The notes beneath the pieces were generated by a model, which saw only the letters and a list, made by a program, of their open reading frames with translations, was not told the DNA's origin and did not search any database. Shown in pieces: positions 54,525 through 55,443 of a stretch of 64,000 bases of DNA (position 1 is the stretch's first letter; each line of letters begins with the position of its first letter). The DNA is taken from assembly GCF_000027125.1 (NCBI RefSeq), contig NC_017626.1; one strand, given 5' to 3'. This DNA comes from Escherichia coli 042. GTDB taxonomy: Bacteria; Pseudomonadota; Gammaproteobacteria; Enterobacterales; Enterobacteriaceae. The translations under genes and the position numbers were made by a program.

Positions 54525-55443
54525 ATATTATCACTTACTGGCGGCTCATACTGAGCTGGTTAATGCTGTGCACACACAAACAAGCAATTCCATTTGTAAT
54601 GTGCCTCCCTGGCAGTTTCATCCGGAACCCGGACGAAAGTAAAAATGCATATGAGTTGCACTAAAAAAGTGACTCACATTGTTCCGTTATAATGCCTGAA
54701 GTAGATCACAGAATATATCTTCAGGAATCGCATATCTATTAAGTTACTCACTCTTTTGTATTTATGACATGCGCGTGTTTGTATAAATGTAAATGTGAGT
54801 CCTTGTTCCACTCTCGTGCAGCATCGCTGGTCATACGCGAACACGTACAAACAGCAATGGTGAGGCGGCATCAAGAGCAGGGATCCGTCATTTATGCGAG
54901 CATTTTACCCCAAAAACCTTTTATTTATAAGGGTCATTGCGAATTATCTGATGCAAAGTTATGTTATGTTAGGCAAAGTAATCTTCTATTATTAATAAGC
55001 ACAACAAAACCTTTTTGAATATTAAATAATAATTAATTAGCATCATCCTCATTCATTAATCCCGCTTAACAATAGTTTCACACCTTGCACCCATTACGAC
55101 ACCTCGGAAATCATCACGCTGTTAAACTCTCCGTAATGCGGAAATATCATCATCACGATTCATTAGTGAATTCTTAAACGAGGCATTTTCAAACAATTAT
55201 CTTACAGATAAAAAAACCACACTCACAATTAAGAATCAGAACAATTCACTACATAACATTAATTATTAAGCATATACACCTCATTATTTTGCCATTATTA
55301 AGTTATTAACAGCACAATCAAGCCTTCCCCTCTGGCAAAATCTTATTCTGCAGACCTTCAAAACGCCGTCCTGGGGGAGTACATTGTTCTAAGCTGACTT
55401 CCACGGCAGGGAGTGGCGATAACAGCAAAAAAGGTCAAGATTC

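Follow-up and report, generated by a model that had tools for sequence, protein, structure and literature searches.

The 919-bp interval between lrhA and alaA in Escherichia coli 042 (54525..55443 of a 64,000-nucleotide stretch of contig NC_017626.1, hereafter the window) is very probably a composite and largely characterised regulatory region serving two divergent genes. It is bounded exactly by the coding sequence (CDS) of lrhA (53586..54524, minus strand) on one side and that of alaA (55444..56661, plus strand) on the other. In this arrangement, lrhA is transcribed from a conserved σ70 promoter starting at 54895 on the minus strand, and the resulting 371-nt leader would set the amount of LrhA, a repressor of flhDC. 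Hfq-dependent small RNAs (sRNAs) pair with this leader and repress lrhA, with UhpU pairing next to the weak Shine–Dalgarno sequence, ArcZ probably at a hairpin carrying GGA, and RprA repressing as well. CsrA binds the leader between −117 and −31 (numbering relative to the lrhA start codon), and the leader is cut or terminated into Hfq-bound fragments. The alaA gene starts at 55392 on the plus strand from an equally conserved promoter, and a conserved stem-loop lies at the head of its 52-nt leader. Between the two starts, 496 bp would form an AT-rich upstream region for transcription factors, including direct inputs from Lrp and CpxR, autoregulation by LrhA, and repression by H-NS. Published experiments establish both starts, the UhpU pairing, the repression by ArcZ and RprA, the binding of CsrA and Hfq, and the RNA 3′ ends, whereas the exact sites of ArcZ, RprA, and McaS, the GGA sites for CsrA, and the role of the central spacer are putative.

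Earlier publications already cover the 371-nt leader, the control exerted on it by sRNAs, Hfq, and CsrA, and the unusual 920-bp spacer, and the gap requires no new explanation and hides no gene. The present analysis adds that the gap length, both promoters, and the leader motifs CACAGCA and AAAUGGAAUUGCUU are kept across the Enterobacteriaceae, while the sequences of the distal leader and of the spacer are not. LrhA stands near the top of a hierarchy controlling motility, fimbriae, RpoS, and CRISPR-Cas; therefore, the region that sets its level matters biologically.

The gap is collinear with positions 2406642..2407560 of the K-12 genome (NC_000913.3), with 25 differing positions and no insertions or deletions, and no feature is annotated in this K-12 interval. 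Its GC content is 0.38, falling to 0.32 in the central part (54936-55356), compared with 0.516 over the window as a whole. Among the approximately 58 intergenic gaps of the corresponding K-12 stretch, it ranks first in size, followed by those between nuoA and lrhA (630 bp) and between yfbV and ackA (337 bp). A reading made from the DNA letters only, here called the sequence-only reading, had described an AT-rich non-coding gap of about 920 bp, with lrhA about 630 bp from nuoA. Both descriptions are accurate, as the gap contains no conserved open reading frame (ORF) and the distance between nuoA and lrhA in the window is 629 bp (52957..53585). Of 5426 complete E. coli genomes, 5425 contain a match with at least 90% identity to a 1161-bp stretch around the gap. 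In about 28 of these 5425 genomes, no single match spans at least 80% of the query.

Both transcription start sites (TSSs) have been mapped. The start-site list of Kim 2012 assigns a 5′ untranslated region (UTR) of 371 nt to lrhA and one of 52 nt to alaA (listed as yfbQ, 231 reads), which places the starts at A54895 on the minus strand and A55392 on the plus strand of the window. The lrhA 5′ UTR thus occupies 54525..54895 (minus strand), and that of alaA 55392..55443 (plus strand), the latter with a mean identity of 0.72-0.91 across the family. The 51-nt lrhA promoter string given by Kim 2012 equals window positions 54895-54945 on the minus strand, save for one or two bases just upstream of the start, and the alaA promoter sequence from the same source equals that of the window. 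The primer SM079, used to build the lrhA-lacZ fusion of Melamed 2023, begins at ATAAATGACGGATCCCTGCT, corresponding to window position 54895, and the same study describes lrhA with “an unusually long 371 nt 5′ UTR”. The suggestion of the sequence-only reading that the gap could hold a long lrhA leader is therefore borne out by published TSS mapping, as opposed to a short leader.

Conservation was assessed over loci retrieved by a scan for LrhA with one genome per species. The best 80 loci, all from Enterobacteriaceae, were fetched, and 78 of these have alaA divergent to lrhA, forming a set of 79 genomes together with the window. The gap length in this set ranges from 764 to 1140 bp, with a median of about 940. 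In a MAFFT alignment, conservation peaks in the last ~110 bp before alaA, at 55014-55073, at 54894-54953, and in the ~90 nt closest to the lrhA ATG. No Klebsiella genome is found among the best 80 loci, and the table of Kim 2012 gives an identity of only 65.9% for the LrhA orthologue of Klebsiella.

Two of these peaks harbor the promoters. The lrhA σ70 promoter (54902..54930, minus strand) consists of a −35 hexamer TTATAA (54925-54930), a 17-nt spacer, and a −10 hexamer TAAAAT (54902-54907), and is kept as cTTATAAAtA...GGtTTT.GGtTAAgAT in the 79 genomes. The alaA σ70 promoter (55357..55385, plus strand) has a −35 hexamer TTCAAA (55357-55362), a 17-nt spacer, and a −10 hexamer TACATT (55380-55385). 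Its hexamers are near- or fully invariant in the same set, as seen in TTCAAA and GGAGTACATTGT, with a variable 17-nt spacer between them. Both promoters were first inferred from conservation and were then met by the published TSSs. The two form a divergent σ70 pair, with hexamers spaced by 17±1 nt, located at mapped starts and conserved in relatives. A scan of the gap for the promoter consensus returned three promoter-like sites where 3.3 are expected by chance and overlooked both real promoters, each of which scores 8 of 12. The promoters guessed in Shimada 2014, CTGCCA-16-TATGAT for lrhA and TTAAGA-17-TATAAC for alaA, lie off the mapped TSSs and were rejected. PMC4094517 and PMC5493358, as well as PMC12968389 beyond its remark on H-NS, contain nothing on the lrhA promoter or start.

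The sequence-only reading had also allowed for multiple promoters, of which one lrhA start and one divergent alaA start stand, while further starts are weak and limited to Salmonella. Differential RNA sequencing (dRNA-seq) in Salmonella SL1344 lists lrhA TSSs at −712, −388, and −164, as well as two starts in the alaA direction, at −462 and −506 relative to that gene. The −388 site, which has the most reads, arises from the same, homologous promoter as the E. coli start. By distance, the extra Salmonella starts would correspond to window positions of about 55236 and 54982-54938; one of the alaA-direction starts is antisense to the lrhA promoter, and no E. coli counterpart was seen. With a distal E. 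coli promoter in the AT-rich spacer, resembling that at −712, the leader would exceed 700 nt and part of the spacer would be transcribed within it. A minus-strand promoter-like site in the spacer (TTGATT, 16 nt, AATAAT; 55321..55294) would yield a leader of ~760 nt, and the lrhA transcript detected with an upstream probe is “around 1.5 kb”, longer than the ~1.34 kb predicted with a 371-nt leader. However, the distal Salmonella TSSs are represented by 1-7 reads compared with 30-46 for −388, and the E. coli TSS list contains only the −371 lrhA start. The candidate TTGATT site is one of the three sites where chance predicts 3.3 and is not conserved even among Escherichia, Citrobacter, and Salmonella. 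A distal lrhA promoter in E. coli is thus unlikely, and transcription of lrhA from the single promoter at 54895 is preferred.

The lrhA leader is a documented target of several sRNAs. In the RIL-seq (RNA interaction by ligation and sequencing) data of Melamed 2023, it forms chimeras with UhpU, ArcZ, RprA, and McaS, and an lrhA-lacZ translational fusion is repressed by UhpU, ArcZ, and RprA. The largest number of chimeras with the leader involves McaS, although overexpression of this sRNA leaves the lrhA reporter unchanged. The pairing of UhpU with lrhA was proven by compensatory mutation in the same study. The pairing site, AGCCGCCAGU, is intact in the window at 54537..54546 (minus strand), approximately −22 to −13. 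The lrhA-M1 gBlock changes GCCGCCAGT to GCCGCGAGT and marks the UhpU site as GCCGCCAGU; the mutated base corresponds to C54540 (−16) of the window. A local prediction of the UhpU duplex falls at −33 to −12. Directly downstream of the UhpU site lies a weak Shine–Dalgarno-like AAGUGA (54531..54536, minus strand), whose AGUGA core is near-invariant, being present in 74-77 of the 78 genomes per column in the alignment of proximal leaders.

Further upstream, the motif CACAGCA (54564..54570, minus strand; 64-78 of 78 genomes per column) is complementary to the UGCUGUG common to RprA and McaS and, as judged from this complementarity, may be the pairing site for both. The duplex energies at this motif are −13.0 kcal/mol for RprA and −15.5 kcal/mol for McaS, not better than those of shuffles. 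The motif AAAUGGAAUUGCUU (54582..54595, minus strand) is largely conserved, with its GGA present in 71-74 of 78 genomes, and is followed upstream by a predicted hairpin, UGCC-AGGGA-GGCA (54602..54614, minus strand), that presents GGA in its loop. The CCAGGGA of this hairpin is complementary to the ArcZ seed and is conserved mainly in Escherichia and Citrobacter. ArcZ nt 58-79 are predicted to form a duplex of −19.5 kcal/mol with 54602..54618 (minus strand), and ArcZ probably pairs at the GGA hairpin, −94 to −78. A second predicted hairpin with 10 bp, UUUCGUCCGG-GUU-CCGGAUGAAA (54616..54638, minus strand), lies upstream of the first, and the two together have a minimum free energy (MFE) of −18.0 kcal/mol. 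A hairpin of different sequence is predicted at the position of the 10-bp hairpin in Citrobacter and Salmonella as well, and the recurring upstream hairpins have a mean z of −1.2. In L025 (Lelliottia sp.) and L031 (an Enterobacter metagenome-assembled genome), around ~2871-3000, the GGA hairpin and the AAAUGGAAUU block are absent from their usual place and the proximal leader is rearranged.

CsrA binds this same part of the leader. The crosslinking and immunoprecipitation (CLIP-seq) peak_226 of Potts 2017 (K-12 2406671-2406757) corresponds to 54554..54640 on the minus strand of the window (−117 to −31), where its sequence is intact with 86 identical bases. In the csrA mutant of that study, the ribosome-protected fragments (RPF) of lrhA rise ~2-fold and its CDS RNA ~1.6-fold, implying repression by CsrA. 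Both AAAUGGAAUUGCUU and CACAGCA lie inside the peak. The GGA of AAAUGGAAUUGCUU is likely a second CsrA site; together with the GGA in the hairpin loop, it would fit the usual two-site arrangement for CsrA.

Hfq co-immunoprecipitation in Bilusic 2014 recovered an “ig-lrhA-alaA” RNA with bands of 150 and 350 nt, and lrhA mRNA is elevated in the hfq mutant. Two Term-seq 3′ ends from Adams 2021 also map to the minus strand of the gap, both labeled “orphan”. The first, at 54816 (K-12 2406933), was detected in two conditions, lies 80 nt past the TSS, and falls just 3′ of a hairpin predicted at leader nt 38-74. The second, at 54574 (K-12 2406691; −50), would define a fragment of ~322 nt, to be compared with the ~350-nt band seen with Hfq. 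An independent and unannotated sRNA gene with its own promoter and terminator could account for the Hfq-bound RNA, which was first listed as intergenic, and for the “orphan” label of the two ends. The intergenic listing, however, arose because the annotated 5′ UTR was short at that time. Both 3′ ends share the strand of lrhA and lie downstream of the only TSS mapped there, 54895, and Bilusic 2014 detected a ~1.5-kb transcript with an upstream probe and concluded that it was the lrhA mRNA. An Rfam scan of 52800-55700 at E<=10 returned only chance matches to eukaryotic families, far under their thresholds. A terminator consensus scan found no site in the gap, with the sole terminator-like site being inside alaA, and the promoter-like sites are no more frequent than expected. 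In addition, the central region is poorly conserved. An independent sRNA gene is accordingly very unlikely, and the unannotated small RNA entertained by the sequence-only reading is not upheld, as the Hfq-bound fragments and the 3′ ends come from the lrhA leader.

The leader might also be more than a passive target: the stable Hfq-bound fragments cut from it, one of 80 nt ending at 54816 and one of ~322 nt ending at 54574, could serve in trans as a decoy for McaS, RprA, ArcZ, or CsrA, a reading prompted by the many McaS chimeras and the lack of a McaS effect on the reporter. This is improbable, but if true, an unannotated regulatory RNA with its origin in a 5′ UTR would effectively be encoded by the gap.

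A protein product of the gap is not supported either. Several ORFs of 25-84 codons are present, the longer ones encoding 84 aa (plus strand), 66 aa (minus strand), 50 aa (plus strand), and 36 aa (minus strand). One of these, the 66-codon ORF at 54874..54674 (minus strand), is on the mRNA strand inside the lrhA leader and could thus encode a small protein or act as a regulatory upstream ORF. However, tblastn shows that the 84-aa and 66-aa ORFs are interrupted by 1-4 in-frame stops where they align with another E. coli (L006) and with E. albertii (L007), in agreement with the earlier claim that no credible ORF is present. The 66-aa ORF and a 30-aa ORF have no significant tblastn match outside Escherichia, the weaker Citrobacter matches to the 84-aa ORF are likewise interrupted by stops, and the 50-aa ORF has a stop in most of its best Citrobacter matches. 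The shorter ORFs coincide with promoter or leader nucleotides that are conserved. An IS1 transposase is the only CDS annotated under the match in the 12 E. coli genomes listed, and none is annotated in K-12. None of the ORFs was kept as a reading frame, and a small protein or upstream ORF encoded in the gap is highly improbable.

Several observations weigh against the regulatory account of the gap or limit its reach. The experimental data come from K-12, enterohaemorrhagic E. coli (EHEC), or Salmonella rather than from the window strain. For the seed windows of RprA, McaS, ArcZ, and UhpU, 43-64 of 100 shuffled leaders give duplex energies at least as good as those observed. At this chance level, the ArcZ, RprA, and McaS sites, placed by conservation and by the identity of the seeds, are only leads. 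Outside Escherichia, conservation is poor over about 280 nt of the leader (54614-54893), and a large part of the leader may therefore lack a specific role. RNAalifold predicts no consensus structure (0 pairs) for the 78 proximal leaders. Two hand-drawn helices near the ribosome-binding site have 76.8% of cells paired, compared with 74.4% in shuffles, and only three double-change cells, with no covariation beyond conservation. The weak extra TSSs in Salmonella imply that the description of one promoter per gene may be incomplete. Lastly, the spacer carries no H-NS flag in the SELEX (systematic evolution of ligands by exponential enrichment) table of Shimada 2014, and the effect of H-NS on lrhA may be indirect.

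Duplex prediction over the full length of the sRNAs and the leader was discarded, as the long-range pairings that it returned had no meaning. A windowed prediction retrieved both the ArcZ seed and the UhpU site, and neither exceeds shuffled controls. The whole leader folds somewhat better than shuffles (MFE z = −2.7); covariation does not support the lrhA leader as a structured cis-regulatory RNA.

Covariation is found instead at the start of the alaA mRNA. A 5′-terminal stem-loop occupies 55394..55417 on the plus strand (+3 to +26), with a core at 55397-55414 and a near-invariant loop, ACGGCA, at 55403-55408. Over 79 sequences, 81% of cells are paired, and 31 cells have double changes compared with 12.8±2.4 in shuffles, a value reached by none of 500. 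The covariation score of 0.178 is likewise reached by none of 500 shuffles (0.150), and controls slid along the alignment give at most 0.089. Double changes occur in four pairs; the pair 55397-55414 is AU in 50 sequences, GC in 14, and GU in 11. The alternation between U-G and U-A (39 and 35 sequences, respectively) favors pairing in RNA over a palindrome in DNA. Such a 5′-terminal hairpin would be expected to stabilize the alaA mRNA. It has no Rfam match, and no description of it was found in the literature consulted on this region. A CsrA site in the hairpin, considered on the basis of its GGA, was dropped, as there is apparently no alaA CLIP peak in Potts 2017.

The spacer between the two starts is 496 bp long with a GC content of 0.32; its length is conserved, and its sequence is poorly so. 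Its central part (54936..55356) differs from K-12 at 4.8% of positions, compared with 1.1% for the lrhA leader. Identity across the family is 0.2-0.5, apart from two blocks near 0.65. The moderately conserved AT-rich block TGTTAAG..ATTAATGA...TTAATTATTATTTAATATT (55014..55073) lies 119-178 bp upstream of the lrhA TSS; in 20-nt bins, its identity to the window averages 0.49-0.67, compared with 0.2-0.45 for most of the centre. Closer to the promoter, 49-88 bp upstream of the TSS, are two tandem imperfect repeats of 20 nt, TTATCTGATGCAAAGTTATG and TTATGTTAGGCAAAGTAATC (54944..54983; 75% identity). They are mostly specific to Escherichia and constitute a possible regulator site. A search for inverted repeats in the spacer returned none, with this 20-nt tandem repeat being the single repeat found.

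Several transcription factors have been connected to lrhA. Lrp activates the gene directly, as determined by chromatin immunoprecipitation (ChIP) and RNA-seq, and CpxR binds the lrhA promoter in EHEC according to a review. LrhA is described as an “autoregulator” in a table of Potts 2017, and the lrhA mRNA is reported to be “strongly suppressed by H-NS” in BW25113 (PMC12968389). In Shimada 2014, the “920 bp-long lrhA-alaA” spacer is singled out as one of the long spacers with RpoD SELEX peaks and multiple factors. The binding of nucleoid proteins of the H-NS or Fis type, proposed by the sequence-only reading, is thus supported only indirectly: the spacer is AT-rich and H-NS is reported to repress lrhA, but the H-NS flag is missing from the SELEX table and nothing was found on Fis. 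The literature search returned no direct occupancy of the gap by either protein.

A conserved length combined with an unconserved sequence fits degenerate AT-rich protein binding and a spacing or insulation role alike. The central ~420-500 bp could therefore have no sequence-specific function, forming an AT-rich insulator coated by nucleoid proteins that separates the divergent promoters and in which only length and composition matter. This alternative is possible, if rather doubtful. The GC content of 0.32 and the reported repression by H-NS are consistent with it, as are the density of single-nucleotide polymorphisms, about four times that of the leader, and a family identity near the chance alignment level for AT-rich DNA, with the gap nevertheless held within the length range given above. 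An IS1 insertion at 54999-55007, present in one complete E. coli genome, points in the same direction. On the other hand, two inner blocks (54934-54953 and 55014-55073) are conserved with an identity of 0.5-0.7, Lrp ChIP and CpxR binding are reported at the lrhA promoter region, and Shimada 2014 treats the spacer as a many-factor site, albeit one without the H-NS flag. A spacer that acts as an upstream region for transcription factors is thus preferred, with the role of its centre assigned only tentatively.

The IS1 element is carried by E. coli SBF22 (L086, 909-1676), has a target duplication of 9 bp, and sits 104-112 bp upstream of the lrhA start, where it separates the lrhA core promoter from the AT-rich upstream DNA. 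At window positions 55261-55267, the sequence departs from that of K-12 at five of seven adjacent bases (TAATTAT compared with GCATGTA), forming a small replaced patch amid point mutations.

The lrhA leader resembles that of rpoS in E. coli, also a long, Hfq-bound leader of a global regulator gene that is targeted by ArcZ and RprA. The rpoS leader is ~560 nt long, and in Salmonella it is 566 nt. However, sRNAs activate the translation of rpoS by opening an inhibitory stem, while they repress lrhA, for which no covariation-supported inhibitory structure was found. The csgD leader is targeted by several sRNAs including McaS and RprA, a feature shared with the lrhA leader. The 755-bp csgD-csgB spacer is, like that of lrhA and alaA, very long, divergent, AT-rich, and subject to many factor inputs, and the two are paired in Shimada 2014. 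In contrast to csgD, lrhA has far fewer documented factor sites and its reporter does not respond to McaS overexpression. In addition, alaA encodes a housekeeping aminotransferase with a short 52-nt leader and is not a co-regulated partner operon, unlike that of the csgD-csgB pair.

The flhDC leader belongs to the same circuit, as LrhA represses flhDC, and its 5′ UTR likewise receives Hfq–sRNA and CsrA inputs. CsrA activates and stabilizes the flhDC mRNA, whereas the rise of lrhA RPF and CDS RNA in the csrA mutant implies that lrhA is repressed. Orthologues of lrhA include hexA (Photorhabdus and Xenorhabdus), pecT (Dickeya), and rovM (Yersinia), from genera outside the 79-genome set. For hexA (−50 to −42) and pecT (−84 to −58), control by ArcZ is established: the sRNA pairs within the 5′ UTR, ahead of the ribosome-binding site, and represses translation, similar to its repression of lrhA, for which the predicted site is −94 to −78. 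The control of lrhA by UhpU has been described as gained within the Escherichia lineage.

Additional RNA ends and CsrA contacts were observed outside the gap. A second CsrA CLIP peak, peak_225, covers the lrhA stop codon and 3′ end (window 53528-53631, minus strand; K-12 2405645-2405748), and a Term-seq 3′ end of lrhA maps to K-12 2405672/3, corresponding to window 53555/6. A very abundant “orphan” Term-seq 3′ end is located in the nuo leader, ~10 nt upstream of the nuoA start codon (window 52965, minus strand; K-12 2405082), which points to either a processing site or a stable RNA derived from the leader.

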